Positions 4,058-18,891 of a stretch of DNA of 20,000 nucleotides are shown here, one piece after another; positions within the stretch are counted from its first letter, which is position 1, and every line of letters starts with the position of its first letter. The DNA comes from an uncultured virus (IMG/VR IMGVR_UViG_3300048599_000797) (lineage: Duplodnaviria > Heunggongvirae > Uroviricota > Caudoviricetes): the IMG/VR virus record IMGVR_UViG_3300048599_000797; one strand, given 5' to 3'. Under the pieces are notes generated by a model. The model saw only the letters and a program-made list of their open reading frames with translations, made no database searches and was not told the DNA's origin. The translations under genes were made by a program, and so were the position numbers.

Positions 4058-4516
4058 CTAGCCTCCCAGATCGGTGCGCAGGCCATCGAGTTTATGCTCG
4101 AGCTCCCACACTCGCCGCTCGAGGGTCTCGATCCGCTCGGCCTGGCTCAGCACCACCTCGTCCACGCGCTTTTCCAGCTTGCCGATCCGGCCAAACAGTT
4201 CGCGGGTGTGTCTCTTGTCGTCATGCCCTCCCTCGGTCTGCTTCCCGTAGACCTTGAGCTTCCGCCAGCCGAGCGCGTTGCGCATGTATTCAATCTGCGA
4301 TTCGGTCATCTCGAACGCCAGCGATTGGGAGCATACACGGTGCAACTTGATGGTCCCCAGATGCTCGAGCGTCTCCCGCCGCTCCTGCAGGAACGTGAGC
4401 AGTTCGTTGCGTTCGAGAATCGTCAAGCAGCGGCGTTTCTTCTTCTGCTGATCCTCGGGTTCGATGGGGCTCTGCGGGACGTGATCAAACAGCGGCGTTC
4501 CATTGGCGTTCGACAT
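4058..4516 (-). CDS. Hypothetical protein with possible helical DNA-binding region and C-terminal coiled coil
   Basis: RBS AGGAGAACGC. Heptad pattern IGKLEKRVDEV...IETLERRVWELEHKLDGL. Confidence 0.8.
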   Translation of the reverse strand: MSNANGTPLFDHVPQSPIEPEDQQKKKRRCLTILERNELLTFLQERRETLEHLGTIKLHRVCSQSLAFEMTESQIEYMRNALGWRKLKVYGKQTEGGHDDKRHTRELFGRIGKLEKRVDEVVLSQAERIETLERRVWELEHKLDGLRTDLGG

Positions 4517-4544
4517 TCTGCGTTCTCCTGAAGAAAAGGGGTTT

Positions 4545-4724
4545 TCACTTCACGATCGCCGCCAGGATCTCCTCCTTGAGCGGCTTCACGCCGAGCTCTT
4601 CGGCCACGGCGTACACAATCTCCCGAAAATCCAACCACGTGGATCCGGCGGCGCTCACGGCGCCGCAGCCCGGGGTTTCGATCCGCACCACCTCGTCGGC
4701 CATCACATTCGTCATCCGCGCCAC
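4545..4724 (-). CDS. Small hypothetical protein (~59 aa)
   Basis: In-frame GTG at 4724 follows AAGGAGAACGCC. ATG 4715 is an alternative start. Confidence 0.65.
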   Translation of the reverse strand: MARMTNVMADEVVRIETPGCGAVSAAGSTWLDFREIVYAVAEELGVKPLKEEILAAIVK

Positions 4725-4740
4725 GGCGTTCTCCTTCCTG

Positions 4741-5217
4741 CTAAGCGATTTGGGCCGGCCGCTCCTGGTCACGGACCCAAATCGCGGCCATCACGGTCAG
4801 CTCCAGCGAATTCTTCAGGCCCAGGCGGCGCTGGATCTCCGCCAGGTGCGTTTCCACGGTCTTCACGCCGAGACGCAGCTCGGCGGCGATCTCGTGCGTG
4901 GTATACGCGCAGCCCCGGAGCCGGAACACCTCGCGCTGCCGCTTGCTGAGCTTGCAGAGCGGCGCGTCCGCCTCCTGTTTCCACAACCGGCACGCGGGAT
5001 CCGCGGCACGAATATCGGTTGCAGGCCCGTGAGTCCAGTGATCCCTGAGCAGTCCACACTTGCGCCACCGCTTACCGTGGTAGTTCACCCGGCAGTAGTG
5101 GGCGCACGTGCGACAGGTTTCGCCGGCCGGGCCGGTACCGGGCAGCGCCGGGTGGGCCTTGTCGATCTTCCGCTTCGAGGGTTCGTCGGCGATCTCCTCG
5201 CCAAACAGGCTTGTCAT
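4741..5217 (-). CDS. Cys-rich (putative Zn-binding) domain fused to a LuxR/GerE-type HTH
   Basis: ATG 5217 overlaps the upstream stop. N-terminal CRTCAHYC...KC...PAC. C-terminal LSKRQREVFRLRGCAYTTHEIAAELRLGVKTVETHLAEIQRRLGLKNSLEL. Confidence 0.88.
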   Translation of the reverse strand: MTSLFGEEIADEPSKRKIDKAHPALPGTGPAGETCRTCAHYCRVNYHGKRWRKCGLLRDHWTHGPATDIRAADPACRLWKQEADAPLCKLSKRQREVFRLRGCAYTTHEIAAELRLGVKTVETHLAEIQRRLGLKNSLELTVMAAIWVRDQERPAQIA

Positions 5218-5555
5218 AGTGCTTTCGGCTCCTCCACGAGTCGGTACAGCAGGCTGCCTGGGTACATCCGCAGGCACTCGCCGCAGATAACACACGCCCG
5301 CCACTTGCGGGCGATGAACACTTGCGCCGCGTGCGGCGGGTTCGCCGTCCGGCCGCAGCGGCGACACCTGGGTACCGCGCCATCTTTCGCCGCGCGGGCC
5401 GCCGAGGCCACCTCCGGCCAGCGGCTGAGGGTCGATTGGGATACGCCCAGTTGCGCGGCGATCGAGCGGAGCGTCATGCCGGCCGCAGCCAGTTCCTTGG
5501 CCTTGGCCCGCACGGACGGGTCGATCGACTTCGCGGGTTTAAGTGCGTTCGCCAT
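5214..5555 (-). CDS. HTH protein with C-terminal CxxC...CxxC Zn ribbon
   Basis: AGMTLRSIAAQLGVSQSTLSRW (HTH), plus CRRC and CVIC. ATG 5555 follows AAGGAAAACGAC. Confidence 0.85.
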   Translation of the reverse strand: MANALKPAKSIDPSVRAKAKELAAAGMTLRSIAAQLGVSQSTLSRWPEVASAARAAKDGAVPRCRRCGRTANPPHAAQVFIARKWRACVICGECLRMYPGSLLYRLVEEPKAL

Positions 5556-6297
5556 TGGGTCGTTTTCCTTCACGAATGGTCTTCGTCAGCCGTTCGATGA
5601 TGGCGAGCAGATCCTCGATCCACACGCGGTTGAAATCCTCTTGTCCCCGGTCGTAGTGGAGTCGAATCGTTTCGACGTTCCGCCTCTCCTCCGCGGTGAG
5701 CGGGTCGGAGGCCTCTTGGCAGGCCGCCGCCAGCTCCCAGAACGTCGCCTCTGGAGCACATGCATAGCAGATTGCGTCTCGGTCACACTGGAGTGGGCCG
5801 CCACACGATCCGCAGCGCGCATCCAAGTGGAATTCCCCGCCGGCCCCCGGGGTGTCGTGAGACGCGGCGGGGGCTGATAACTCCCCGCAGCCCCGGGGGC
5901 CGTGCCCTGACAATGACTCGGCCATCGCGATGACGTCGGATAAAATCCGCGCCCATTCAGCCCACCAGGCATTTCGTTTTTCCTGCGGCCAGTGAGCGGG
6001 CAGCATGATCTCGGGTCCAGACCCTCCATCCTTGTCTCGAATCATGGCCGCCAGCCTCTCCGCTGCGGCCCTGCAGAGGGCGGAGGCATCCTGGCATGCG
6101 TGCTTGTCTCGCAATGTGGACTCGTAGTGCACACGCCAATTTCTGGCGCCTGCCTTCGCCGCCTCCAGCTCGGCGACGAGGCGGTCACGCTGGAAGGCCA
6201 GGCGGCTGATCACGTTCGTCTGGCCGGCTGCGTTTTCAGCACCGACCATTTCGGCAATCTCTTGTTCGGTCGGCGGTATCTTCACGTCAGGTTTCAT
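5539..6297 (-). CDS. Mosaic hypothetical phage protein (coiled coil plus Zn ribbon)
   Basis: The start at 6297 overlaps the upstream gene end. Helical N-terminal half, low-complexity linker, CGSC...CYAC. Confidence 0.7.
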   Translation of the reverse strand: MKPDVKIPPTEQEIAEMVGAENAAGQTNVISRLAFQRDRLVAELEAAKAGARNWRVHYESTLRDKHACQDASALCRAAAERLAAMIRDKDGGSGPEIMLPAHWPQEKRNAWWAEWARILSDVIAMAESLSGHGPRGCGELSAPAASHDTPGAGGEFHLDARCGSCGGPLQCDRDAICYACAPEATFWELAAACQEASDPLTAEERRNVETIRLHYDRGQEDFNRVWIEDLLAIIERLTKTIREGKRPNGERT

Positions 6298-6499
6298 CAC
6301 TAGGTTCCTTCTCGCCTTTCGGCTGCTCTCGAATCCTGCATTGGCACGGCACATGCCCACGGCCAGTCAGCACCAACGCAAAACCTTCCAGGTCAACGCG
6401 TACGTCGATTCGCGTGTCTCCGTGCCGAATCTCGATGGCTATGTACTCCTCGCCGTCGCCGGGGATAGAGCGCGAGATTGAAAGTTTGTCGGTGCTCAC
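6287..6499 (-). CDS. Hypothetical protein (70 aa)
   Basis: Starts 3 nt after the upstream stop, with a GGAG RBS. Globular beta-rich sequence. Confidence 0.7.
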   Translation of the reverse strand: MSTDKLSISRSIPGDGEEYIAIEIRHGDTRIDVRVDLEGFALVLTGRGHVPCQCRIREQPKGEKEPSDET

Positions 6500-6502
6500 C
6501 CA

Positions 6503-7147
6503 TCACTCCCCGCCGGCCTCGGGCTCGGCGACTGGCGGCCTCAGTCGTCTTTTCAATTGGCGCATCGACAGCGCACGAAATCCGTTGACCCCAGCTAGTC
6601 GACGGATGTTTATCCGCTGTCGACTCGTCCACTGAAAGGGCCAACCGTGTCCACACCCGTCGCACTCAATCAGCCCCAGCGTCCAAAGCAAGTCGGCATC
6701 AGCTTCGGCGATCCGAATACGGACGCCACCTTGGGTGTGCATAGTCCACCTTGCCGGATCATCCGGACTAGTGATGTATCCCGATTTGTTGATTCGATGG
6801 AGATCGTCACCGCTCAGCATCCGCCGAAGGATAACTGCCGCTCCGTGCGTAACTACGACCGACTTCGGACTGGCAAGCAGATCGAGGCACGGCACGAATA
6901 CCCCAGAGGCCGGAACCAAGTACGCAAATCCGGCGATCGTAAGGTTGTTCATCTCTCCGTAGGACACGCCGCGATTCCCGAATCGCCACGGGGCAATGGC
7001 GGCGCGTTTGCGCTGCGCCGTGAAGGCATCCCGGAATAGCTTGGCAATAATCTTGTCGCGATGCGTGAGCATCGTGCAGGCGTTTACGGCATCCTGCCAT
7101 CGTTTCCACGACCATCGCTGTCGATTTGTGGTTCCTTCGGTCGTCAC
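6503..7147 (-). CDS. Hypothetical protein (214 aa)
   Basis: GTG start after GGGAGGGGAGGGAG. Visibly lower GC than the flanks. Confidence 0.7.
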   Translation of the reverse strand: MTTEGTTNRQRWSWKRWQDAVNACTMLTHRDKIIAKLFRDAFTAQRKRAAIAPWRFGNRGVSYGEMNNLTIAGFAYLVPASGVFVPCLDLLASPKSVVVTHGAAVILRRMLSGDDLHRINKSGYITSPDDPARWTMHTQGGVRIRIAEADADLLWTLGLIECDGCGHGWPFQWTSRQRINIRRLAGVNGFRALSMRQLKRRLRPPVAEPEAGGE

Positions 7148-7194
7148 GTTGTTATCTCCCTCCCCTCCCGCCCGCCACGCGGGCTCTAGCGTTG

Positions 7195-7374
7195 TCAGTC
7201 GCGACTCGCCGCTTCAACCATCCCATGCACGCGGTTGCAGATGAACTCGATCTGCTTCAGTTCCTGTTGCGTCTCGGGGCAATGGAGCGAAACCGTCGCG
7301 GTCACATCCTTCGCTAACGCCCGTAACGCAGTAAGTTGGCCTTGCAGCCACGCCTTGCTAATACAGTCCATCAT
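7195..7374 (-). CDS. Small helical hypothetical protein (59 aa)
   Basis: TGATG overlap with the upstream stop at 7374; MMDCISKAWLQGQL... Confidence 0.65.
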   Translation of the reverse strand: MMDCISKAWLQGQLTALRALAKDVTATVSLHCPETQQELKQIEFICNRVHGMVEAASRD

Positions 7375-7664
7375 CACCCCTCCCCGGCCTGCTCGCCCTT
7401 CGCTAAAGCGGCCTCGACCGCCTCGGCCCAGGCCGTGTACTTGTGCTCGGCCTCCTTGAACGATTCGTAATACCGCTTCCGTTGCTGGTCTGAGTAGCGT
7501 CCCCAGCGGTTCTCGCCGCGTTGGCACTTGTATGCTTGCGTGGCGTGCTTCTGCGCGAGCTTGCGCAGGTAGATCGCCAGGTGAAACAGCGGCTGCGACA
7601 TGAGCGCTCGGCCGCATTGCGGGCAGAACGGGGTGTCGCGATTCTTCTTGCAGCATTGGACCAT
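7374..7664 (-). CDS. Zn-ribbon hypothetical protein (96 aa)
   Basis: TGATG overlap at 7664; MVQCC...TPFCPQCG. Confidence 0.72.
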   Translation of the reverse strand: MVQCCKKNRDTPFCPQCGRALMSQPLFHLAIYLRKLAQKHATQAYKCQRGENRWGRYSDQQRKRYYESFKEAEHKYTAWAEAVEAALAKGEQAGEG

Positions 7665-7921
7665 CAATGCACCTCGCCTTCGGCCTTGGCGGCGATCTCC
7701 ACCGCGAATCCGCACCACTCCGACGGGATCAGCTTCCGCTGGTCCGCGGTCAACGGGCGGTTCGGCTGGACGTGCAGGACGCCCGATCGGGCCTTTACCC
7801 ACTTTCCGTTGACGCATCGGCTCGTGGTGTACCCGACCATAGACGAGATCCCGAGGCGGGATAGCTCATCGAGGAGCGAGCAACAGGCGCGGTCGCGTTT
7901 CGTGCGTACGTAGGATTTCAT
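7664..7921 (-). CDS. Hypothetical protein (85 aa)
   Basis: Translationally coupled on both sides (ATGA and TGATG). Confidence 0.7.
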   Translation of the reverse strand: MKSYVRTKRDRACCSLLDELSRLGISSMVGYTTSRCVNGKWVKARSGVLHVQPNRPLTADQRKLIPSEWCGFAVEIAAKAEGEVH

Positions 7922-8382
7922 GTGTGATGCTCTCCCTCAAGCAACAGCTCGCACCAATCGCAAATCCGGCCGGCGCACACGTCGCGGATGCCGTCCCAGT
8001 CGGCCGGGTAGTCCGGCCCAGCGCCGCGTTGCTCCGAGTGGAAGCTCACCTGGCCGGTAGGGAGATCCACGTACAGCACCCAGCGGTGGTAGCTCTGTTC
8101 CGGGTCGATCTTCCAGCCCCAACGAATGCCGAGCTCGGCCGCGTGCCGGCCCAGCACCTGGACCAGGTTGCCCATCGACCATTGCTTGCGGTCGTAGGCC
8201 ATGTCCCGGTACCGGCCTTTGCCAGCGATGCCGCCGCGGTAGACCTTGGCCCTGGCCGAGCACTTCTGCGCGCGAAACAGATTCAACGCCACGGCGCCAA
8301 CCGGTCCCAATTCTCCCAGGCGAGCATAAAGAGCCTTGGTCGCTTCGCCGTCGCTGGCCAGGTAGATCTGGTGAGGTGTCAT
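7918..8382 (-). CDS. Conserved phage protein, WDGH-like domain
   Basis: VLYVDLPTGQVSFH...DWDG motif; coupled overlaps. Confidence 0.75.
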   Translation of the reverse strand: MTPHQIYLASDGEATKALYARLGELGPVGAVALNLFRAQKCSARAKVYRGGIAGKGRYRDMAYDRKQWSMGNLVQVLGRHAAELGIRWGWKIDPEQSYHRWVLYVDLPTGQVSFHSEQRGAGPDYPADWDGIRDVCAGRICDWCELLLEGEHHT

Positions 8383-8681
8383 AATCGACGCTGCCCCTTC
8401 CTCGCCATCTCCCGGCGCTCGGCCCGCTCAGCGTTGATCTCCGGCGAGCGGTAGCCGACGTCGCCGTCGTCCTGACCGTCAAACTCCCGCTTGCAGTTGG
8501 CACACCAGAAATTCCGCGGCCCGTCGGGGTGCACATGCTTGTCGGTCTTGCACCAAGGGCAGGGCGGGATCGGGGGCGGATCGTCGCTCGGCCGCGGCCG
8601 TGGGCAGCGGGGGCAACCGTGGTCCCCCTGCTCGTCCTCGGGCTCGGAGAAGAATCTGCGGTGGATCGGGCACCATCCCAT
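8379..8681 (-). CDS. Small double Zn-ribbon protein (100 aa)
   Basis: CPIH...CPRC and CPWC...CANC; GAGG RBS. Confidence 0.78.
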   Translation of the reverse strand: MGWCPIHRRFFSEPEDEQGDHGCPRCPRPRPSDDPPPIPPCPWCKTDKHVHPDGPRNFWCANCKREFDGQDDGDVGYRSPEINAERAERREMARKGQRRL

Positions 8682-8684
8682 GGC

Positions 8685-9578
8685 TCACCTCTCTGCGTAG
8701 CTGGGTCCGTTGATGATCAACACCTCGGGGGCCTCCTTCAGTTGGCTCCCTCGCCCGTTTTGCACATGCAGGTTCTTCTGCCGTGTCTTCTCGACAAAGG
8801 TCCACCCTTGGTAGAGATCACGCACTCGCGGGCTGTCGTAGTAGCTGATTACGATCCGCGCCCGCTTGTACCCAGAGACGATATCCCGCAGGCGAACGTG
8901 ATCGTCTCCAAACAGCTGATCATCGTGGCTAAACTCATGCAGGTACTTGTGATCAGGCCCCTTGCCCTTGCGGTAACCGCTGCGCGTGTCCGCCAGGTAT
9001 GGAGGGTCGAGATAGATGGCGGTTTTCGGCGAATCCTCAAAGCGGTCGAGGATGGCGAACGCGTCTCGCTGGAGAATTACCACGTTTTGCAGCCGTACGT
9101 GCCAAGCAGGAAGCGACTCGACGGCGTTTCTCCAGCGGACCGTGGGAGACCCGCCGTTATTTGTCCATCGAACAGCCAGTTGATAGTCCACTCGCTTTGT
9201 CCCAGCGGTACCGTTGCGTCCCATCCATGAGGCGAGGAAACACCAGTACGCGCGGTTCAGTGGATCCACTTCGGATTGCAGCGCCTGGCGGGCATCATTG
9301 AGTATCCCCTCGCAGACCAAGGCACGCTGAAGACGTCCGTACAACTCCGGTGCTTGGTCGCTCTGGATCACCCTCGCCAAGTTGACCAAGTCGCCGTGCA
9401 GATCGTTGACCGTTTCCTTCTGGCTCGGATCCTTTGCGAAGAGCACGGCCATCGAGCCGCAGAAAGGCTCGAAGTACTGCGAGTGCTTCCCAAGCTCGGC
9501 GACGATATCGGGCGCCATGGTCCGCTTTCCGCCGAACCACGGGACGATTGCTTTAACCTTCATTTCGCTTGTACTCAT
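8685..9578 (-). CDS. N6-adenine DNA methyltransferase, D12/Dam class
   Basis: PWFGGK, YFEPFCGS, ETVNDL and YLDPPY. The start is probably ATG 9578 after GGAGAACG; the ORF extends to 9602. Confidence 0.93.
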   Translation of the reverse strand: MSTSEMKVKAIVPWFGGKRTMAPDIVAELGKHSQYFEPFCGSMAVLFAKDPSQKETVNDLHGDLVNLARVIQSDQAPELYGRLQRALVCEGILNDARQALQSEVDPLNRAYWCFLASWMGRNGTAGTKRVDYQLAVRWTNNGGSPTVRWRNAVESLPAWHVRLQNVVILQRDAFAILDRFEDSPKTAIYLDPPYLADTRSGYRKGKGPDHKYLHEFSHDDQLFGDDHVRLRDIVSGYKRARIVISYYDSPRVRDLYQGWTFVEKTRQKNLHVQNGRGSQLKEAPEVLIINGPSYAER

Positions 9579-9611
9579 GTCGTTCTCCAGACTTGTGCTC
9601 ACAGACCATTC

Positions 9612-11453
9612 CTACGCCGCCTCCGTAATCGCCGCGCAGATCGCCCGCCCGAACACTGGCGGGACCGCATTCCCGATCAACTTCGTTTGCTCGGCGAGGG
9701 TTTTCGCACCATCCAGGCGATAGTCCGCAGGAAAACTCTGCGCGAGCAGTAGCTCCCGGTTGGTGAGCATGCGGAACCCAACGTCGTACACGCCTAACTC
9801 GGCCATGGTTTTGATCAGGCTCCGCATCTCTGGACTGTCGTCACCGAGCTCCGCAGCCCGGGCCGCAAGGTAGTTCCCGAGCTCGCCCGCGCACACGTGA
9901 GCCGTGGCCATGCCGAACCGGTCCTTGGTGGTGACAGTGTCCAGAGGATCGGAGGGATCCGTCGCACCTCCGGCGCCGTAGTACTTGGTCAGGAAGGGCA
10001 GGCACAAGCCTTTTCCGCGCACCGTCGTTACGGCCCCAAGTGGCCGATCAAGCGGTGCGCAGCGGTCGCCGGTCTTTCCGTCTTCTCCGTGGTTCACGTC
10101 GACCATGTACGGCGTCACGAGATGCCCAGGTGAATGGCTCGCGGTGACCGTGGGTACCGGATCGTCAATCGACCTGGCCGGCTTGTCCTGGCGGCAATCA
10201 TAAAACCCCTGGCGCGGCAGCAGAAACGGAGTCACAAGGCTGTTGCCGGGCTTGGTGACGATCGTCGGAACCGGTCTATCGATCGTGGTCGACGTGTCGT
10301 CCCTTCGTCGGTTGTGAATGTCGATCAGATAGGGTTGCACGATCGCGTGGTTCTCCCGAGCGGCCAGGATCGTGGGCACGGGCGCCTCGATCGGCCTGGT
10401 CAACCCTGGGTTTCTTCCCCTGGCCTTGAATTGGAAGGGCGCAACCAGGGCGTACCGCGGATTGGTATCGATCGTGGGGAACGGCTGAGAGACGTCACAT
10501 TGCCGCTCGGTGCCATCCCGCTCCGGGTCCGTGCCGCCGTGGTACTGGACCATGAACGGGGTGGCCATGGCCGTGTGCTGGCTCTTGGCGGTCACCGTAG
10601 GAACTGGCTGCCGAATGTCGGCTACGGTGCTCATGCCGTAGAGCTGGACCAGGTAAGACCTGGCTTGGCCGGCGAAACGCCTCAGCCCGACCTCGATTCT
10701 CCGTAGGGTCTTCGGTTTCAGCGGCCGCTTTCGGTCGAAAATCGAAGGCGATGGAAGCGACCAGTCGATGATCGACGCCGCCGGCGCCCACTGGTCTCGG
10801 TTGTGCGTCGGATCGGGCCAGGGGATGTCCTTGCACCGCACATCCTCCCGCTTGGCAATGATAAACAGCCGCTGACGCGTGGTCGCCGCGCCAAAATCGG
10901 CGGCGTTGAGAATCTGGTGATCCAGGCGGTAACCGATGCTTTCCAACGCCCGCACCCACTGGCGGAAGATCTCCCCTTTCCGTTGCGGGTCGGGGATCAT
11001 CCATGGCCGGCCCTTCCGGTCCAGCATCGGCCGCCCGTGCTTATCCCGCTTCTGAATCAGGGGCCCCCAGTCGCGGAACTCGCGGACGTTTTCCACGACC
11101 ACCCACTGCGGCCGCTTGCACTCGGTCCAGATCACCACGTGCCACGGTGTGGCACGTTTCTGGTCCTCGACGGGCTGACCGCCGCGGGCGATCGAGTGAT
11201 GCGTGCATTCGGGCGATGCCAGCAGGAGGTCGAGCTCGGGGAGCGTGTGATCGTTCCTCGGGTCCACGTCGTCGATCCGAGCACAAATCACCCGGGCCCC
11301 GGGATGGTTGGCCTGGAACGAGTACGCCGCCGGGCGCCAGTGGTTGACCGCCAACACCGTGCGCACGCGCCCGGATTCCTCGGCACCTTGGGAGAACCCG
11401 CCGAGACCGCAAAACAGGTCCGCCGCTGCAAAGATCTTTCGGCGTCGTGCCAT
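9612..11453 (-). CDS. C5-cytosine DNA methyltransferase with repeat-expanded variable region
   Basis: DLFCGLGG (I), SPEC (IV), VENV (VI), RQRLF (VIII), RMLTNREL..AQSFP (IX) and IGNAVPP (X). Confidence 0.95.
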   Translation of the reverse strand: MARRRKIFAAADLFCGLGGFSQGAEESGRVRTVLAVNHWRPAAYSFQANHPGARVICARIDDVDPRNDHTLPELDLLLASPECTHHSIARGGQPVEDQKRATPWHVVIWTECKRPQWVVVENVREFRDWGPLIQKRDKHGRPMLDRKGRPWMIPDPQRKGEIFRQWVRALESIGYRLDHQILNAADFGAATTRQRLFIIAKREDVRCKDIPWPDPTHNRDQWAPAASIIDWSLPSPSIFDRKRPLKPKTLRRIEVGLRRFAGQARSYLVQLYGMSTVADIRQPVPTVTAKSQHTAMATPFMVQYHGGTDPERDGTERQCDVSQPFPTIDTNPRYALVAPFQFKARGRNPGLTRPIEAPVPTILAARENHAIVQPYLIDIHNRRRDDTSTTIDRPVPTIVTKPGNSLVTPFLLPRQGFYDCRQDKPARSIDDPVPTVTASHSPGHLVTPYMVDVNHGEDGKTGDRCAPLDRPLGAVTTVRGKGLCLPFLTKYYGAGGATDPSDPLDTVTTKDRFGMATAHVCAGELGNYLAARAAELGDDSPEMRSLIKTMAELGVYDVGFRMLTNRELLLAQSFPADYRLDGAKTLAEQTKLIGNAVPPVFGRAICAAITEAA

Positions 11454-11456
11454 GCC

Positions 11457-11744
11457 CTAGTTCCTCCTCTGCTGCACGTTGCGGAAGATGGTTGCGGTTT
11501 CCGCTATCTTCATTGCCAGATTGGGCGAGTGGTCGCGGTCGGCAGGAAGTCCCCAGAGCGTGCAAAGCATCGCCGCCGTCAACCCCATGGCCGCGTCGGC
11601 GGCCGCGGCCAACACCCACCCCGGAATCTGGTCTGGAGAGCTCTGGTACCTCTCCATGACCTCGGCGCGGGCGATGTTGAATGCCGCAAGACATTCATCC
11701 CGAACATGTTTGAACTGCTCCGCTTCGATCTGCGTGTGTGGCAT
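11457..11744 (-). CDS. Hypothetical helical protein (95 aa)
   Basis: ATG 11744 follows GGAGAACGCA. The stop is 3 nt before the MTase start. Confidence 0.75.
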   Translation of the reverse strand: MPHTQIEAEQFKHVRDECLAAFNIARAEVMERYQSSPDQIPGWVLAAAADAAMGLTAAMLCTLWGLPADRDHSPNLAMKIAETATIFRNVQQRRN

Positions 11745-11821
11745 TGCGTTCTCCATTCTCGGGCCGGCCGGCGTTCCCTGCCGACCGTCCCGTGTCCATC
11801 CGCGGCCGCTGTCGTGCGACC

Positions 11822-12316
11822 TTACCGGGAAATCATCCGAGCCAAACGCTCGCTGTCGTCGAACACGGCGATCAGTCGCCCCACGGCGCGAGCCATGGCC
11901 ATGACGTCGCCGAGGCCGATTGCGTAGTTCGGCCCGAGGTGCTCGGTGAGCGCCTCGAGCTGCGGCGTGAGGTCCGCGTAACTCGGCGGAACATCCGACT
12001 CGGGCAGCATCTGCTGGCGCTCCAGGTCGTAGCCGACCATTCGGGCGAACACGCTGGTCAGCAGATCCAGGCCCTGCACCTGCATCAGCACGTTAAGCCG
12101 CAGCACGAGGAGGTCGTCGACGTGTTGCGGGCCGAGGCGTGGCGCCGAGGTCAGCAGCTCGGCGGCGCAGCGGATCCGCTCACGCAGGCCGGTCACGGTC
12201 CATGTGGGCGTGCCGATCTCGCGGTACTCTTGGAGCGTGTCCAGCAGCTCGAGAAACACGCTGGGATAGGCGTATTTCAGGCGCTGCACCAGGTCGACAA
12301 AATCGTCGAGCTTCAT
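11822..12316 (-). CDS. Hypothetical helical protein (164 aa)
   Basis: ATGA overlap with the upstream gene; GGAGG RBS. Confidence 0.8.
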   Translation of the reverse strand: MKLDDFVDLVQRLKYAYPSVFLELLDTLQEYREIGTPTWTVTGLRERIRCAAELLTSAPRLGPQHVDDLLVLRLNVLMQVQGLDLLTSVFARMVGYDLERQQMLPESDVPPSYADLTPQLEALTEHLGPNYAIGLGDVMAMARAVGRLIAVFDDSERLARMISR

Positions 12317-13635
12317 TCCTCCACCTCCGCCGGCTCCTCGTCCATGTCGGCGAAGTAGTCGTCGTCCAGGGGATCATCGACGAACTCGGCGTCCTCCGTT
12401 TCGTCGAGCTCCTGGTCGGCGGCGTCCTCGAGCTCCTCGTCGGTCGGCTCGGCATCGTCGTCGTCCTGATCCTGGGCCGCGGCGAAGGGCGACTCGATCC
12501 CGTGCTCCCTGCAGAACACCTCGAGCACCGCGGCCGTTTTTTGGGCCGTCGGCCCGCCCACCGCATCGAGCGACTCGAAACGGTTGCCGGCCTGCACCCA
12601 GGCGTAGACCTCACCCATCGTCGTGAGCTGGGCCTTCTCCAGGGCCGTGCGGGCCCGCTTGCAGAAGCCGCTGTCGTCGAGCGCGATCTGCTCCCAGTTG
12701 GCCGGCGCCGCCGGCTGGCGGGAGCCTTTCACGATCTCGGCGAACTCGAGCAGAATCTGCGCCTGGTCGCCGTTGATCCCCGGAATGTCGAGGAAGGTGA
12801 ACCCGGCCGAGTGCCAATCCACCGCCTGCTCGGGCGTCGTGATGCCCTGCGACTCGAGGTAGCTGAACGTGGCCGGCTGAAGTCCCGAGGGCCACTGCAG
12901 GCCGGGCTCCGGCTCGGCGGCCGACTCTGGGGCCGGCGCGCCGCCGCGGGCGGACTCCAGGGCGGCCTTATCACGGTTCGCGCTGAGCCAGTTGAGCACC
13001 GCCTCCTCGATCCGATCGGCGTTGCCCTGGCCGATCCCGTTGAGGCTCGTCAGGCCGGCGCCTGCCCGCAGATCCTCGAGCTCGCCGATCGTGCTCACGC
13101 CGCCCTCGTGGAGCAGATCCACCTGGCGTTCGTTGAGCGTGAGCTCCTCGATCGTCACCAGACGCCACGAGTTGTCCACCGGTTCGCTGGCCGCCGTGGG
13201 AGCTGCCGGTGCCTCCTCGCCGAACGGCAGTTGCCGCTGCGGGTCGGGCTTGGGCGGCAAGGCCGGGCCGCGGCGGATCAGGTCGCGGAGGTATTCGTCG
13301 GCGCGTTCGAATCGCTTCTTCGCGTTCTTGTGCTCCTCGGCGGCCTCCTCCATCTCCGCTTCGCGCTCCGCCACCTCGCGCTCCTGCTCCTTGATGGCCT
13401 CGTAGTGATCGCGCTCGGCCTTGTCCCAGGCAGCGGCCTCGTCCTGCTCGGCGACGTTGTCCTCCTCGGCGGCTGGTTCGGCTTCGGCGGCGACTTCAGG
13501 CACCTCGGCCGCAGTGGCTTCTGCGGACGCTTCCGGGGATTCGACGTGCTCCTCGGCCGGCGCGTCAACGACCTGCGTCTCCACCTGGTTCTGCTCTTCG
13601 GATTCGACTTCCACGGGGGTTTCGACTTCACTCAT
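12313..13635 (-). CDS. Acidic protein with coiled coil and three RNA polymerase alpha-CTD-like (helix-hairpin-helix) domains
   Basis: AAGGAG RBS. TIEELTLNERQVDLLHEGGVSTIGEL...LTSLNGIG..NADRIEE resembles alpha-CTD, and two further copies follow. Confidence 0.75.
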   Translation of the reverse strand: MSEVETPVEVESEEQNQVETQVVDAPAEEHVESPEASAEATAAEVPEVAAEAEPAAEEDNVAEQDEAAAWDKAERDHYEAIKEQEREVAEREAEMEEAAEEHKNAKKRFERADEYLRDLIRRGPALPPKPDPQRQLPFGEEAPAAPTAASEPVDNSWRLVTIEELTLNERQVDLLHEGGVSTIGELEDLRAGAGLTSLNGIGQGNADRIEEAVLNWLSANRDKAALESARGGAPAPESAAEPEPGLQWPSGLQPATFSYLESQGITTPEQAVDWHSAGFTFLDIPGINGDQAQILLEFAEIVKGSRQPAAPANWEQIALDDSGFCKRARTALEKAQLTTMGEVYAWVQAGNRFESLDAVGGPTAQKTAAVLEVFCREHGIESPFAAAQDQDDDDAEPTDEELEDAADQELDETEDAEFVDDPLDDDYFADMDEEPAEVEE

Positions 13636-13680
13636 CGATACAGCTCCTTGGGGTTGCGCTCGGCTTCCTCGCCGAGCAGG

Positions 13681-13872
13681 TTACAGTTCATCCACGGGAC
13701 CGAGTAAACGGCGCTTCTCGGACCACGCTCGGCGGTAGATAGCATCCAGGTCCGAGTTCTGGGGGAACCCGAGACGAACCATCACGATCACAAAATCGAT
13801 GTCGCGCTGCGCACGCTCGAGGCGTGCGGCGGGCTGTACTGGCCATCGACTGGGTGAGGAAATGCGGTTCAT
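13681..13872 (-). CDS. Small hypothetical protein (63 aa)
   Basis: TGATG overlap at 13872; MNRISSPSRW... Confidence 0.6.
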   Translation of the reverse strand: MNRISSPSRWPVQPAARLERAQRDIDFVIVMVRLGFPQNSDLDAIYRRAWSEKRRLLGPVDEL

Positions 13873-14129
13873 CAGTTGGTCCCTTTTGCTTTGCGGAGAC
13901 GCGAGGCCTCCCAGATCGCGAACATCAGCAGATCGCCCAGCCCGCTTGCGGTGATCTGGTATCCCGCGGCTTGTGACTTCGCGTCTTCGACGGCCTTGGT
14001 CGCGGTGAGGTAGGCACTCTCGGCGACCGCGAGCCACTCGTGCTCGGGCATCTCGATCAGCCGCTGCTTGATGCGTGTTACCGCCTCAAGGCCGCTGCGC
14101 AGCAGTTCCTGAACTTCAGCTTCGGTCAT
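13872..14129 (-). CDS. Hypothetical helical protein (85 aa)
   Basis: GGAGGA RBS; overlaps the end of the initiator gene. Confidence 0.75.
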   Translation of the reverse strand: MTEAEVQELLRSGLEAVTRIKQRLIEMPEHEWLAVAESAYLTATKAVEDAKSQAAGYQITASGLGDLLMFAIWEASRLRKAKGTN

Positions 14130-15024
14130 GGAGATCCTCCGTCTCTGGCAGCGCGATCCGGGTCGCCGCCAACAGTTGGTGCAGATTGACGCCGGCTTTC
14201 GAGGCCTCGGCCTTGATCACCGTCATGAGGTAGCCGACCGGCCGGGTTACGGGCTCTTCGCTGGTGTTGCGGCGCAGACTCAGGGCCTGCAGGCCGGAGT
14301 CGATCCAAGCCTCGGGGATCTGCCCGGTGACCATCAGGCTCCCGAGCTTCAGGAGGGTGAGCCGATCCTGCGCCCGAAAATGCTTGTTGATCAACCCGCC
14401 CCCCAGCGGTCGGAACTTGCGGAGTGCGGCCGCCACGGCCTCCTCGCTCGCGCACGCGTCTTTCTTGGATAACGTATGTAAATGGTCCTCACCTCTCCTC
14501 TCCTCACCGTCTGGTTGTGGTTGTGGTTGTGGTTGTGGAGAGGGCAAAACCTCCGCATTTGCTCCGCCTGATACTCCGCACGGCTGCGGAGTATTTGCGG
14601 AGTTTTTCTCCGCACCACTGCGGAGGTTTTGCGGAGTATTTTTCCGCGTCTTCACCGCACGAGCGTCGGCTTTCTTCCGCTTGGCGTCGGCAATTCGCCG
14701 CTTCGACGAGTTGGTGAACCACTTCTCGTAGTGCGGCATGACCGTGTCGCTGCCGTCGAAGTGCAGCCACCCCATAGGGTTTTCCGCGCTCTTCGTCACC
14801 CGCGCGATGGTCTCCCAGTACTCGGCCGTGCCTCCCAGCCGAGACGCCAGCCCCTTGGCCTGCACATTGCGATAGCGGCCGTCGGTGGTGTGCCGGTCCA
14901 TCAATCGCCAGAACAAGAACCAGCGGAAGAACACGGTTTCCACGGACTCACCAGTCGCCTCGACGATGGCGATGAATTCAGGCTTGTCGGGGAGGTCGTG
15001 ATCAAGAGGCAGCCAGTCGGCCAT
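14116..15024 (-). CDS. Phage replication initiator / replisome organizer-like protein
   Basis: MADWLPLDHDLPDKPE...FWRLMD.HTTDG N-terminal domain, basic helix (SKRRIADAKRK), repeat-encoded linker and PQPQ/EERRGE linker. Located just after RecT. Confidence 0.75.
   Translation of the reverse strand: MADWLPLDHDLPDKPEFIAIVEATGESVETVFFRWFLFWRLMDRHTTDGRYRNVQAKGLASRLGGTAEYWETIARVTKSAENPMGWLHFDGSDTVMPHYEKWFTNSSKRRIADAKRKKADARAVKTRKNTPQNLRSGAEKNSANTPQPCGVSGGANAEVLPSPQPQPQPQPDGEERRGEDHLHTLSKKDACASEEAVAAALRKFRPLGGGLINKHFRAQDRLTLLKLGSLMVTGQIPEAWIDSGLQALSLRRNTSEEPVTRPVGYLMTVIKAEASKAGVNLHQLLAATRIALPETEDLHDRS
14512..14538. repeat. (TGGTTG)x4.5 tandem repeat encoding PQPQPQPQP
   Basis: Directly visible in the sequence. 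Confidence 0.9.
14544..14648. repeat. Iteron-like TGCGGAG/CTCCGCA cluster; putative replication origin
   Basis: CTCCGCA at 14551, 14574 and 14608; TGCGGAG at 14585, 14596, 14619 and 14630; degenerate copies at 14562 and 14642. Confidence 0.75.
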
Positions 15025-15086
15025 ATCGCGTGTCTCCGTTCAAATGGGCCCGCCATGGCCCACGCGCGGCTCCGTCCGAACGCGGA

Positions 15087-16481
15087 TCAGGTGAAGAGCT
15101 TGCCGCCGCCGTTGGTCGGCTTGGGAGCCATGGCCGGGCGATCGGTGGGCGAGGCCGGCAGTTCCGCCAGTCGCTGTTCGACCAGGTGCAGCATGTCGTC
15201 GAGCTCCTGCTGGTCCGTGAGCAGCTTCTGGATCGCCTCCCATGCGGCTTTCCCGTCGCCCTTGTGCTTCATGCCACGCATGATCGAGTGCGCCTTCATC
15301 CAGGCCTCGGAGCGTTGCGGCTGGGCCGGCTGAGCCTTGGCCGGAGGTGTGGACGTGGGCGCCGTCTGGGCGGGCTTCTGCGTGGCCGATGGAGCCGCAG
15401 GAGCGGGCTTGGTGGCGGGGGCCGGCTTCTGCGCCGCGGGGGCCGTCGCGGCCTGCTGCGTGGGCTTGGTGGCCTTGCGGGGCGCGGCTTTGGCGGCCTT
15501 CTCGGCGGCCGTCGGCGGGAGCTCGACATGCTCGGCCGGCACGGTGACCGTTTCGGTTTTGGGCGGCTCCGGGGGCTGGCTCTGGACCGCGGGCTCGATC
15601 ACCTCGACCGGCCCGGCCGGAGCCTGGGGCTGCTCTTCCTTGGGCTGCGGCAGCCGCTTGACCTCCGCGTCGTAATTGTCGGGCATCGTGCTCAGTACGC
15701 CCGAGGCATCAAGGGTCGCGGGGAGCACCACGTCGATCCGCGATTGGCTCTCCTGGCTGAGCCCCATTTCGCGCTCGCGCATCAAGTCCAGGTCGTCATT
15801 GGAGAGAATGCCGAGCATCAGCTCGGGCGTGTAGCGGCGAGCCCACTTGGTGCAGCCCGTGTACCACAGTTTCTGCTCGGGATCCTTCCACCACATGTCG
15901 TTCTTGGTCTTGGCCTGAGCGACGGTCAGACGCACGGCCTCGACGCCCATCCGCAACAGCTTGCGGGCCGCCACGCGGTCCTCCTGGTCGGTGTACGCCT
16001 CGAGCAGCTCGTAGGCATCGTCGCTGACGTCGCCCTCGCGCTTGGCGAACACCACCGCCGCCAGATCGTCGCCTTTGCCGGGCCCGTACATGATCGACAG
16101 CGGCTTGCTCAGTCCGGCCCGCGTGTTGACAATCGCGGCGATGAGCTTGCCCTGGTACCCCAGCTTGTTGCCCACCACGTAGGTTTCGGCGGCCACCGCG
16201 AAAATATCCGCGCCCCACCGCACGGCCTGGTTGGCGACGAGAATGCAGTTGGCCACCGTCTGCTGCCAGGCAATATGGCCGCGTTTCTCCTCGGGCACGT
16301 TGGTCAGGTCCGACTTGCGGACCTTGAGGTGCACGGGCGTGAGCGGGGCGGCGGCGAGCTTTTCCGCCTGCTCACAGACGAACTTCCACATGCTCTCCGC
16401 GTCGTTGCGCACGGCAGGTGCCTTGGCCGGCGGTACGGCCACGGGCGGCGTTTCGGTGTGGGTTTGAAGCGAAGTCGACAT
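15087..16481 (-). CDS. recT: RecT-family single-strand annealing protein with long Ala/Pro/Lys-rich tail
   Basis: ANCILVANQAVRWGADIFAVA.ETYVVGNKLGYQGKLIAAIVN and WWKDPEQKLWY...WARRYTPELMLGI. Close to the exonuclease. ATG 16481 follows GGAGAACGCT. Confidence 0.82.
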   Translation of the reverse strand: MSTSLQTHTETPPVAVPPAKAPAVRNDAESMWKFVCEQAEKLAAAPLTPVHLKVRKSDLTNVPEEKRGHIAWQQTVANCILVANQAVRWGADIFAVAAETYVVGNKLGYQGKLIAAIVNTRAGLSKPLSIMYGPGKGDDLAAVVFAKREGDVSDDAYELLEAYTDQEDRVAARKLLRMGVEAVRLTVAQAKTKNDMWWKDPEQKLWYTGCTKWARRYTPELMLGILSNDDLDLMREREMGLSQESQSRIDVVLPATLDASGVLSTMPDNYDAEVKRLPQPKEEQPQAPAGPVEVIEPAVQSQPPEPPKTETVTVPAEHVELPPTAAEKAAKAAPRKATKPTQQAATAPAAQKPAPATKPAPAAPSATQKPAQTAPTSTPPAKAQPAQPQRSEAWMKAHSIMRGMKHKGDGKAAWEAIQKLLTDQQELDDMLHLVEQRLAELPASPTDRPAMAPKPTNGGGKLFT

Positions 16482-16517
16482 AGCGTTCTCCAAAGTTTGG
16501 GTGTTGTAGATGGTGGG

Positions 16518-17042
16518 TTATTCACCGGTGAAGGGGCTCGACGAGTTGCGAATCTCCCCGAGCATGACTTTCGGGTCGATCAAGTGGTACGTGCCGCCGA
16601 TCTGGAGCTGTACCGGCATCCGCTCGCGCGCGGCGAGAACGATCGCCTCCGCGAGCGCGCTCGCGGTATCGAATCCCAACTGCGGGATGGCGATGATCAT
16701 CGACGTCCCGTCGGGCAGTCTGTGCAGTTTGTGCCGCAGGTACCCGCGGGACGTGGTCGAGCACTGGGGCGCGTTGTCGCCGGCCGCGTCGGGATGCTTC
16801 GGCTGCTCGGGATTCTCCTCGGGCTCTGGCGGCGAGAGGAACAACTTCTGGCCGATGCCGCGATTGGGCTTACCGTCGCTGAACGTCGGGCGGAACATGC
16901 GGGCGAGCGCGCCCAGCATCTCGTCGAAGCAGAGCTCGGCGTGATCGAGCTTGCCGAAGCGATCAGCGATCACGTGGAAGTTGCTGCGCTGATACTCGGC
17001 GATGATCGTCACGCGTTGGGGTTGGCTGTTACTGATCGGCAT
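16518..17042 (-). CDS. Hypothetical protein (174 aa) between exonuclease and RecT
   Basis: ATG 17042 overlaps the exonuclease end, with GGAG upstream. Confidence 0.65.
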   Translation of the reverse strand: MPISNSQPQRVTIIAEYQRSNFHVIADRFGKLDHAELCFDEMLGALARMFRPTFSDGKPNRGIGQKLFLSPPEPEENPEQPKHPDAAGDNAPQCSTTSRGYLRHKLHRLPDGTSMIIAIPQLGFDTASALAEAIVLAARERMPVQLQIGGTYHLIDPKVMLGEIRNSSSPFTGE

Positions 17043-17958
17043 TGTTGGCAAACTCCATAAAATCGGTGAAAGGTTCGACGCTCCCGGGATTTTCATCCCA
17101 CTTCCATTTCAAAACCTGGGTCAACGTGCAGCGGCCGAAGCCATGGCCGCGCCAGTCGCCCGATGCCAGCCTCGCCCGCACCTCGGCCAACGAGATGTGG
17201 GTGTGGCGCATCCCCAGTTCGACGTCATGCTCGGCCAACTCCTTGAGCCGCGCACGGAACGGGGGCACGTTTTCCACGAACAGGAACACCCACCGGTTGG
17301 GCCTGGAATAGGCTCGTTCGGTGTGCTCCCAGTACATCCCGGCCTGGCTGTAGTAGCCCATGCCGGTGACCTGTTTCTCGATCCAGCGGTCGTCGCAGCC
17401 GCCCGAGAATTTCAGGTCCAGAATGTCCAGCGCGTTGCGGAACTGGCAGAGCTTGTCCAGCCGCACGCGGGTCGGCAGGCCCGTCGCCTGGTCGACCATA
17501 AACAGCGAGTGCTCGACGTACCCCTGGGTCTCGAGGTACGCCTTGATCTGCGGGTCGGCCAGGCAGTGTTCGCGGGCGTAGCTGAGTGCGCTGAACTCAT
17601 CGCGCTTGATCACCGGCACGTTGGGCAGGGCCTGGCCGATCTTTTCCCAGCCGCCGGGCGCCACCGATCCGGCTTTGGTCAGGAAATCCTGCGGCACGAG
17701 TGTGGGCTTGATCTGCTCCAGCAGCCAGGCGTGCAGCGCCGAGCCCATGACCATCGCCCGCGTCTGCGAGAATTCGACGCGCCGGAGGATGTACTTCCAC
17801 TCGAACATCTCCGGTTCGTCCGGCAGATACTTGAGCTGGCTGTGGGACCAGTTGCCCATACGGTGGTACCGGTCGTTGGGCATGTCGACGTGCACGCACT
17901 TGCCGTCGGGCGGCGCGATGATCTCTTTTTGTGGGTTAGGAGGCAGAACCACGATCAC
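17029..17958 (-). CDS. RecE/exonuclease VIII-like PD-(D/E)xK nuclease (DUF3799-like)
   Basis: DMPNDRYH, SHSQLK, GSALHAWLLE, VEHSLF, RVRLD, ILDLK and YYSQAGMY. Confidence 0.9.
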   Translation of the reverse strand: MIVVLPPNPQKEIIAPPDGKCVHVDMPNDRYHRMGNWSHSQLKYLPDEPEMFEWKYILRRVEFSQTRAMVMGSALHAWLLEQIKPTLVPQDFLTKAGSVAPGGWEKIGQALPNVPVIKRDEFSALSYAREHCLADPQIKAYLETQGYVEHSLFMVDQATGLPTRVRLDKLCQFRNALDILDLKFSGGCDDRWIEKQVTGMGYYSQAGMYWEHTERAYSRPNRWVFLFVENVPPFRARLKELAEHDVELGMRHTHISLAEVRARLASGDWRGHGFGRCTLTQVLKWKWDENPGSVEPFTDFMEFANNADQ

Positions 17959-18163
17959 CTCCTGCCGTCGCGGGCTGCAGCACCGGCGTTTTCTGCTCCG
18001 GCGGGCCTCTCTTCGTGTTGTCGCGCGAGAGGCGATAACACTGCGGGGCCGCCACGCCGACCCGCACGTAACTTCCGTTGATCCGGGTGACGAGCACTTC
18101 CACGCGACCGCCTGGGCCGTCGATAAAGAACTTCTCGCCGGCCCTCCTTGAAATCATCAGCAT
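17936..18163 (-). CDS. csrA: Phage-encoded CsrA/RsmA-family RNA-binding translational regulator
   Basis: MLMISRRAGEKFFI...VEVLVTRINGSYVRVGVAAP...LSRD matches CsrA MLILTRR.GE...VRIGI.AP....HREE. Confidence 0.88.
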   Translation of the reverse strand: MLMISRRAGEKFFIDGPGGRVEVLVTRINGSYVRVGVAAPQCYRLSRDNTKRGPPEQKTPVLQPATAGGDRGSAS

Positions 18164-18215
18164 CTTGCGTTCTCCATAGGAAATAGGCTTATCCCCGCCA
18201 TGCAGCGGGCGATTG

Positions 18216-18653
18216 CTACTCTTCGATGTGTGGCAACTTCGACGACGTTGACATGATGATCGCTTCCATGAGCTTGGGGTCGATCGTGTAGTAGACGCCG
18301 TGGAAATCCAACTGCACGCACGTGAGCGATTTCAACGCGACCCACGTTGCCTCGGCGATTGCTTCGTGAAACGCGCACGTGTCAGTTCGGGGAACGACGC
18401 GAATCCAGCGTTTGCCGTTCCGTGAAAGTTCCGACACCCGGCGCAACACCAGTTCGGTCGAAGTTGGATGGGCCCGGTTGGAGTCCTCGACCGCGGTAAG
18501 TTGCTTTTCGACCGTCTCGCGTTCCGATCGCTCGATCGACAGTTCTCGATTCAGCTCAGCGATCCGTTCGGTAGTAATGCACAGAGGGCAGCGGTCGCTC
18601 GCGGAGTGAACCACGATCCCGTCGTGGTGATCGCACGTCTTCATGCCGGTCAT
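18216..18653 (-). CDS. Hypothetical protein (145 aa) with Cys/His knuckle and coiled coil
   Basis: CDHH...CPLC; RBS AAGGGAGAACGCC. Confidence 0.8.
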   Translation of the reverse strand: MTGMKTCDHHDGIVVHSASDRCPLCITTERIAELNRELSIERSERETVEKQLTAVEDSNRAHPTSTELVLRRVSELSRNGKRWIRVVPRTDTCAFHEAIAEATWVALKSLTCVQLDFHGVYYTIDPKLMEAIIMSTSSKLPHIEE

Positions 18654-18684
18654 TGGCGTTCTCCCTTCGTGATGATGGACCTAC

Positions 18685-18712
18685 GAAAAGCCGGCCTAGG
18701 AGTATCGCCGGC
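18685..18712 (-). terminator. Weak intrinsic terminator-like hairpin
   Basis: Minus strand GCCGGC-11 nt-GCCGGC followed by TTTTC. Confidence 0.35.
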
Positions 18713-18856
18713 ACGGGGGCTCGTTCTCCCACACTCCCCTTTGGTGCACCTGTGCTTCTCGCGCCCCGTCCCGGGCACCCGGGCGGATTGCCAGCCGGTT
18801 TAACTCTGCTTGCGGGCAGGCCGCTCGGAGTTCCGGCGTCCGTTCGGCAACGCTGT

Positions 18857-18891
18857 GAAAAGCCGAGCGCGTGACTGGAAAACGCGCTCGG
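18857..18891 (-). terminator. Intrinsic terminator-like hairpin downstream of the recombinase
   Basis: Perfect 10-bp inverted repeat (18863-18872/18882-18891), followed by CTTTTC on the minus strand. Confidence 0.5.

Follow-up and report, generated by a model that had tools for sequence, protein, structure and literature searches.

For start-associated repeats of phages, the closest described case is the start-associated sequence (SAS) of the Cluster K mycobacteriophages, a 13-bp repeat, GGGATAGGAGCCC, that has been known since 2011 and is absent from or very rare in the host genome, and for which neither a reader nor a role is described (PMC3203893, PMC12699233). In Citrobacter phage Mordin, eight genes of unknown function within one genome arm have a 26-bp repeat, with GGAGAA as its last bases, in front of their starts (PMC4611695). 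The element considered here, referred to below as the tag, is the 8-mer GGAGAACG, extended by a C to the 9-mer GGAGAACGC at six of its eight positions in the window, by which is meant the whole 20,000-nucleotide stretch analysed of the uncultured Caudoviricetes record IMGVR_UViG_3300048599_000797 (IMG/VR). The window represents the early region (integration, recombination, replication, methylation) of a GC-rich prophage (about 64% GC) with every gene on the minus strand, and the tag consists of the Shine-Dalgarno (SD) core GGAG followed by the fixed bases AACG(C). In phage T4 the GGAG target of RegB, located in the ribosome sites of early genes, is a comparable SD-embedded word that marks a gene class, in that case with a phage factor as its reader; to our knowledge, the AACGC extension has no counterpart in the T4 RegB system, and no RegB-like nuclease was found in the present analysis, although no search aimed at one was made. 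A literature search for AGGAGAACGC returned unrelated primer matches only, and no paper on the tag word was found.

An exhaustive scan of the window identified the tag eight times on the minus (coding) strand and not once on the plus strand. Dinucleotide-preserving shuffles held 1.07 copies on average and 4 at most, with none of 200 reaching 8, and the six copies of the 9-mer compare with 0.34 expected, a count that was again reached by none of 200 shuffles. When as many as two mismatches are allowed, the number of matches does not rise above chance level (114 versus 100.9 expected, a number reached by 21 of 200 shuffles), and the enrichment is therefore limited to the exact word, with no fuzzy preference around it. 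Among the tetramers that follow GGAG on the minus strand, AACG is the commonest (8 of 145).

Seven of the eight copies are located 2-4 nt before the start codon of a minus-strand open reading frame (ORF), and six of these seven starts are ATG. From right to left, the tagged ORFs encode a protein of 145 amino acids (tag at 18657..18664, 3 nt before the ATG at 18653), a CsrA-like protein of 75 amino acids (18168..18175, 4 nt before the ATG at 18163), a RecT-like protein of 464 amino acids (16484..16491, 2 nt before the ATG at 16481), a 95-aa protein (11747..11754, 2 nt before the ATG at 11744), whose gene is directly abutted downstream by a C5 methylase gene, a D12 adenine methylase of 297 amino acids (9581..9588, 2 nt before the ATG at 9578), a 59-aa product (4727..4734, 2 nt before a GTG at 4724) and a 152-aa protein (4521..4528, 4 nt before the ATG at 4516). 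The ninth base is C in six of these seven tags and A in that of the D12 methylase gene. Two of the tagged starts are backed by homology, as the csrA product aligns with solved CsrA chains from residue 1 and the RecT-like protein begins with MSTSLQ where a relative has MSTELQ. The eighth, orphan copy (18722..18729, minus strand, followed by A) is situated between the integrase gene and the 145-aa gene; it was not counted as a gene start because the only frame behind it has 52 codons, overlaps the neighbouring gene and has a GC content at third codon positions (GC3) of 0.51, versus 0.75 in that gene. A terminator-like hairpin on the minus strand (18686..18712; GCCGGC, an 11-nt loop containing CUCC, GCCGGC and then UUUU) separates the orphan copy from the tagged 145-aa gene. 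Variants of the tag precede two further minus-strand genes, GGAGACACGC (15028..15037) before the ATG of the replication initiator (15024) and GGAAAACGA (5560..5568) before an in-frame ATG (5555) of a gene with a helix-turn-helix (HTH) domain. A preliminary description of this DNA, made by eye, had listed eight occurrences, had placed seven of them 2-4 nt before plausible starts and had noticed the two variants; the exhaustive scan returned exactly those eight, the start-associated positions held, two of them with support from homology, and both variants are present.

In each of the seven tagged genes, 6-8 nt separate the end of the SD core GGAG from the start codon, within the canonical SD range of 5-10 nt, and no other SD was seen in the tagged leaders. 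In an alignment of the tag sites, positions +4 to +8 are invariant and positions -12 to -1 are variable, and the identity ends abruptly at 8-9 nt; over 80 nt upstream and 52 nt downstream, the only conserved features besides the tag are an AT-rich stretch at -3 to -1 and the C at the ninth position. The canonical anti-SD tail would ask for GUGAUC after GGAG, not for AACGC. The host seems to use this canonical 16S tail, judging from the exonuclease gene of the same prophage, which is preceded by AGGAGGTGATC, a canonical full match. The extension AACG(C), already recognized in the preliminary description as going beyond what an SD explains, is thus not accounted for by pairing with the canonical tail, although the host's own tail may differ. 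A further possibility, that AACGC pairs with the h45 strand of 16S rRNA, was dismissed on general knowledge, this strand being base-paired in the ribosome.

With regard to gene arrangement, the tag appears to be confined to genes that cannot rely on an upstream neighbour for their ribosomes. When genes separated from their upstream neighbour by 10 nt or more are taken as uncoupled, using the gene calls made for this analysis, the tag is found on 7 of 15 uncoupled genes versus none of 13 abutting or overlapping ones (Fisher p 0.007), and a non-coding gap of at least 16 nt precedes all seven tagged genes. Each of the seven tagged genes heads a block that is translated on its own, for instance the csrA, exonuclease and 192-aa genes, or the 95-aa gene together with the C5 methylase gene. 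The tag thereby marks the heads of translationally coupled blocks, that is, sites of fresh ribosome loading.

The same word was found in a second phage, G002 (34.5 kb, 65.4% GC, estimated 42% complete), which was reached through a homologue of the D12 methylase among 15 viral loci and not through the motif. Its sequence carries 11 forward and 3 reverse copies of GGAGAACG, and the 9-mer GGAGAACGC occurs 11 times in its first 20 kb versus 0.47 expected. Eight of the 11 forward copies stand just before an ATG, and the genes so tagged encode a Sak4-like annealing protein, a helicase, a Holliday-junction resolvase, two conserved phage proteins and three small ORFs. By rough gene calls, the tag is present on 7 of 17 genes of the non-structural region versus none of 20 packaging and structural genes (p 0.002). 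In protein, G002 and the window overlap only in a 52-aa methylase fragment, and no CsrA match was obtained in the available G002 sequence. When 17 sequences were analysed alike, an upstream 8-mer common to at least five genes was found in the window and in G002 only, and it was the same word in both; in the other 15 (13 methylase loci, the provirus G001 and Pseudomonas phage F116), no upstream 8-mer was common to more than three genes.

Two side observations concern G002. The methylase fragment is an 83-aa ORF (L033 8492-8743) corresponding to the N-terminal part of a D12 methylase, with 77% identity over 52 amino acids and 73% DNA identity to the window gene, and is, by sequence comparison, a trace of gene exchange between two otherwise unrelated phages. 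In addition, two 93-aa ORFs near opposite contig ends (L033 947-1228 and L034 14185-14466) share an identical leader, CGGAGAACGCGAACATG, and might represent paralogues or indicate terminal redundancy.

A third phage, G091 (56.9 kb, 61.6% GC, estimated 88% complete), was reached by a motif-directed scan of IMG/VR, and hence weighs less than G002. It has 12 copies of the tag on its coding strand, 10 of them start-associated, in leaders that are very A-rich (AAAAAAGGAGAACGCAAAATG). Its tagged genes include those for a RecE-like exonuclease and a ParB-like protein, and one is located in the head module. Different SD cores, too, are followed by AACGC in this genome, for example in GGAGGAACGC and GAGGAACGCGAC. 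Neither a CsrA match nor any protein match to the window or to G002 was found in G091. Two motif-directed scans of IMG/VR gave, among the matches listed, 98 viral records with at least one copy, with G091 as the sole clear multi-copy case; the remaining 97 have 1-6 copies each, a single copy per record being the usual finding, and 1-3 of these are at gene starts in the records inspected. Start-associated single copies exist in other GC-rich viral records, and a 17-base motif pattern matched 51 stretches in IMG/VR, which is near chance by a rough estimate.

Over the 26 start-associated sites, the consensus is an A-rich stretch, then GGAGAACGC, then R-A-M and then ATG, the last being present at 22 of the 26. 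The distance to the start varies from 6 to 11 nt over these sites, and the extension is fixed relative to the SD; a reader would therefore appear to take the SD and the extension as one unit.

Compared with the Cluster K SAS, the tag shares the general layout of a short asymmetric repeat, in one orientation, a few nucleotides before starts with ATG favoured, and the combination of an SD core with flanking conserved bases, which in the SAS cannot pair with 16S rRNA (PMC3203893, PMC12699233) and here do not extend pairing with its canonical tail. SAS sites belong to non-structural genes; the window covers early genes alone, and G091 has one tagged gene in its head module. The differences are several: the SAS measures 13 bp and the tag, GGAGAACGC, 8-9 nt; the extension of the tag in the window is only 3' of the SD, unlike in the SAS; about half of the SAS sites have 17-bp inverted repeats (ESAS), whereas none surround the window tag; and the SAS is described within one phage cluster, whereas the tag occurs in phages without protein similarity. 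The Mordin repeat measures 26 bp, is rich in AT and has been reported from a single phage (PMC4611695), whereas only 8-9 nt are fixed here. Given its different word and the lack of further conservation around the sites, the tag is, as far as the sequences tell, an analogue of the SAS, of the same start-associated kind, and not a member of the SAS sequence family. The layout was already known from the SAS, and what is new is the word, its length of 8-9 nt, the absence of ESAS repeats and its recurrence in phages that are not related to one another.

The reading tentatively preferred here, plausible at somewhat less than even chance, is that the tag acts in cis as a site on which the ribosomes of the host or hosts land by preference, and not as an operator of the phage CsrA. 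The tag would then be a stereotyped translation-start signal, in which the SD core GGAG and the fixed 3' AACG(C) are followed by one to three free bases and the start codon, and it would mark the first gene of each translationally coupled block, where ribosomes start afresh, acting as a strong landing site for them. The same 9-mer is found in phages without common proteins, and the selecting agent may therefore lie outside the phages' own protein sets, in the host translation-initiation machinery or in a host factor. The determinant is most likely at the host level, and its effect most likely efficient initiation. The tag may also act as a translation enhancer, one of the alternatives offered in the preliminary description. 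Several observations weigh against a host-level landing site. A model of a best ribosome site predicts common degenerate variants, yet the variants are at chance. The restriction of the tag to one gene class in G002 looks like a class mark, not like a general optimum, and multi-copy use is rare, being seen in one of the 98 records among the matches listed. Tetranucleotide signatures are also at odds with it: G001, the closest to the window (similarity 0.75), is without the tag, and G091 differs in signature (0.42, compared with 0.68 for G002), which makes one shared host doubtful.

The explanation that survives best beside a landing site for host ribosomes, possible although rather unlikely, assumes a trans-acting reader, RNA or protein, for which the tag serves as a handle; this would be either an antisense small RNA of the phage or a host factor, by which early genes would be switched up or down together. 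The enrichment of the exact word only would fit such a reader, as would the confinement of the tag in G002 to a single gene class by the rough gene calls given above. A candidate small RNA unit was identified on the plus strand of G002 (L033, 749-843), comprising a sigma-70-like promoter site (TTGACT-17-TG-TATTCT), a hairpin in which GCGTTCTCC complements GGAGAACGC exactly, and a strong intrinsic terminator, with a fold z-score of -4.85. Duplex energies between this candidate RNA and the leaders separate tagged from untagged ones only weakly (-27.2 versus -22.9 kcal/mol), the GC-rich terminator pairing with everything, and exact complementarity was used instead for this reason: the 5' part of the unit can pair without mismatch with 9-14 nt of every one of the eight tagged leaders, and with no more than 8 nt of 30 other leaders. 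On the other side, the unit is without relatives in IMG/VR by a scan with a 16-base anti-motif, so that covariation could not be assessed; the scan returned 29 stretches, near chance by a rough estimate, and the other 28 are in unrelated contexts. The window has no exact complement of the tag outside the tag sites themselves, and its complements allowing G:U pairs (four extra sites versus 2.5 expected) do not stand out; the one complement site of G091 that was read through proved to be in coding sequence. No counterpart of the G002 unit was seen in the window or in G091. In its fullest form, this explanation makes GGAGAACGC a translational address label common to unrelated phages of uncultured GC-rich bacteria, with a dedicated trans-acting reader (an antisense RNA or a host factor) that switches early replication and recombination genes on or off together, the reader of the window prophage being encoded beyond the 20 kb; as a whole, this version has to be considered unlikely.

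Phage-borne homologues of csrA are on record in 30 of the 2517 phage genomes of a 2020 survey, and no role is described for them (PMC7366521, PMC9144972). The main idea of the preliminary description was that the phage's own CsrA binds GGAGAACGC over the ribosome site and thereby represses or activates the tagged genes together with csrA. A real, divergent csrA gene is indeed present and itself tagged, the tag contains GGA, and the leader of the 145-aa gene has two copies of it, 65 nt apart; in addition, the CsrA proteins of the window and of provirus G001 are too divergent for a BLASTP alignment, which leaves room for a private specificity. A CsrA operator is nevertheless very improbable. The likeness to CsrA/RsmA sites over the SD consists of GGA at the ribosome site and a phage-carried csrA, whereas the conserved flank is here on the opposite side of GGA, loop presentation is missing and csrA and the tag do not go together across phages (PMC7366521, PMC9144972). 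In the tagged leaders conservation follows GGA on its 3' side, with variable bases 5' of it, and folds of the eight leaders gave no common hairpin presenting GGA, with unpaired probabilities that vary widely. Known CsrA sites conserve the 5' flank (consensus RUACARGGAUGU) and hold GGA in a hairpin loop, usually with at least two sites per leader. Literature searches found no paper that links a phage CsrA to a start-associated motif.

Co-occurrence with csrA in related phages, which the preliminary description had named as a check on this idea, was compared in five genomes and showed no association, csrA and the tag being found together in the window only. For the tag-bearing phages G002 and G091, a search of the available sequence (42% and 88% complete, respectively) gave no PF02599 match with an E value of 0.1 or less, and as these two unrelated phages carry the tag without a CsrA gene, it appears to be a shared start signal and not a private CsrA switch. 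Conversely, G001 and F116 have csrA without the tag. The 41-kb provirus G001, the nearest of the relatives reached via the window exonuclease, encodes an exonuclease 69% identical to that of the window, with a CsrA gene (PF02599 at 69.3 bits) directly upstream of it (locus L013, 2993-3160 and 3235-4116); this order is the same as in the window, and the csrA-exonuclease pairing may be conserved in the phage group. None of its six copies of GGAGAACG lies before a gene start, and its gene starts have varied SD contexts. Pseudomonas phage F116 has an annotated CsrA-like regulator, and the -22 to -1 regions of its 59 annotated starts contain neither the tag nor any 8-mer common to more than two genes. 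The recT orthologs of three metagenome fragments have leaders with other sequences than the tag (GGAGTGATTTAAT..., GGAGGAATAATTC and CGGAGACATAGA). Apart from the comparison with the tag, the G001 CsrA is canonical-looking and could not be aligned with the window CsrA by BLASTP, and the minus strand of G001 holds 15 copies of the 8-mer GGAGCCGT, 14 of them with AGCC in front, probably a coding tandem repeat.

The least credible proposal is a DNA-level site, either a 'stoperator'-like asymmetric operator for a repressor or, as the preliminary description alternatively had it, a micro-homology at module boundaries for RecE/RecT-like shuffling: the sites lack symmetry, all point the same way and occupy short intergenic gaps, and genes for an exonuclease and a RecT-like protein are present in the phage, but GGAG stands at SD distance (6-8 nt) from every start in leaders without another SD, the orthologous recT leaders of relatives differ, and the identity stops sharply at 8-9 nt, which is short for a protein operator and far shorter than the homology used by recombinases of the RecE/RecT kind, so that nothing was found in favour of the micro-homology.

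For the remaining features of the window, the gene order on the minus strand begins with the integrase gene, which extends past the right end, and continues with the 145-aa gene, which has no Pfam or PHROG family, and the csrA-like gene (17936..18163; PF02599, phrog_9500), whose end is overlapped by 23 nt by a gene of the DUF3799/exonuclease VIII-like kind. The 192-aa gene, the RecT-like gene (PF03837, phrog_561) and the replication initiator (14116-15024; phrog_2509) follow, then the C5 and D12 methylase genes, the HTH (HTH_23) and LuxR-type regulators, and finally a RusA-like resolvase and a trypsin-like peptidase. The gene at 17936-18163 is, by its PF02599 score of 34.7 bits (cut-off 27) and its alignment with solved CsrA chains (MLMISRR, VRVGVAAP and an arginine opposite the arginine of HREE), a real but divergent member of the CsrA family. 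A search of 5.8 billion proteins recovered no relative of it besides itself, and tblastn against phage records gave no match.

Relatives of the other window genes were similarly scarce. Megablast of the window against deposited phage records gave no match and thus no close relative, and tblastn against phages and plasmids gave only matches below 50% identity, spread over many phyla, from which no host could be inferred. The RecT-like protein had no close relative in the genome contigs or viral contigs searched, an alignment search of genome contigs with the exonuclease found nothing, and no viral relatives were found for a 440-aa protein or for the replication initiator. Rfam and tRNA scans of the window returned nothing relevant, and a promoter scan gave one weak site.

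A terminator-like hairpin follows the integrase gene (18858-18890, minus strand; a 9-bp stem, a 9-nt loop and UUUU), the stem-loop junction of which, GCGUUUUCC, is a G:U-tolerant complement of the tag. The wobble complement GCGTTTTCC in this hairpin (18877-18885) was tried as a candidate and rejected, as the stem hides half of it and such sites are no more numerous than chance would give. Inside the replication-initiator gene, a 34-bp unit is repeated 2.2 times (14574-14647); it contains CTCCGCA, CTGCGGAG and TTTGCGGAG followed by T-runs, which gives at least four copies of TGCGGAG. This repeat looks like an iteron-type origin within an initiator gene, comparable by analogy to lambda O/ori.

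As to what the tag may mean for these phages, its restriction to uncoupled genes points to fresh ribosome loading as the step that it serves. The identical 9-mer in phages unrelated in protein shifts the search for a reader from a phage protein such as CsrA toward the host or toward small RNAs. If host genes also proved to be tagged, the finding would reduce to an unusually rigid consensus of the host ribosome site, and if a dedicated reader exists, the tag would provide phages with a simple and portable control of gene sets at the level of translation.

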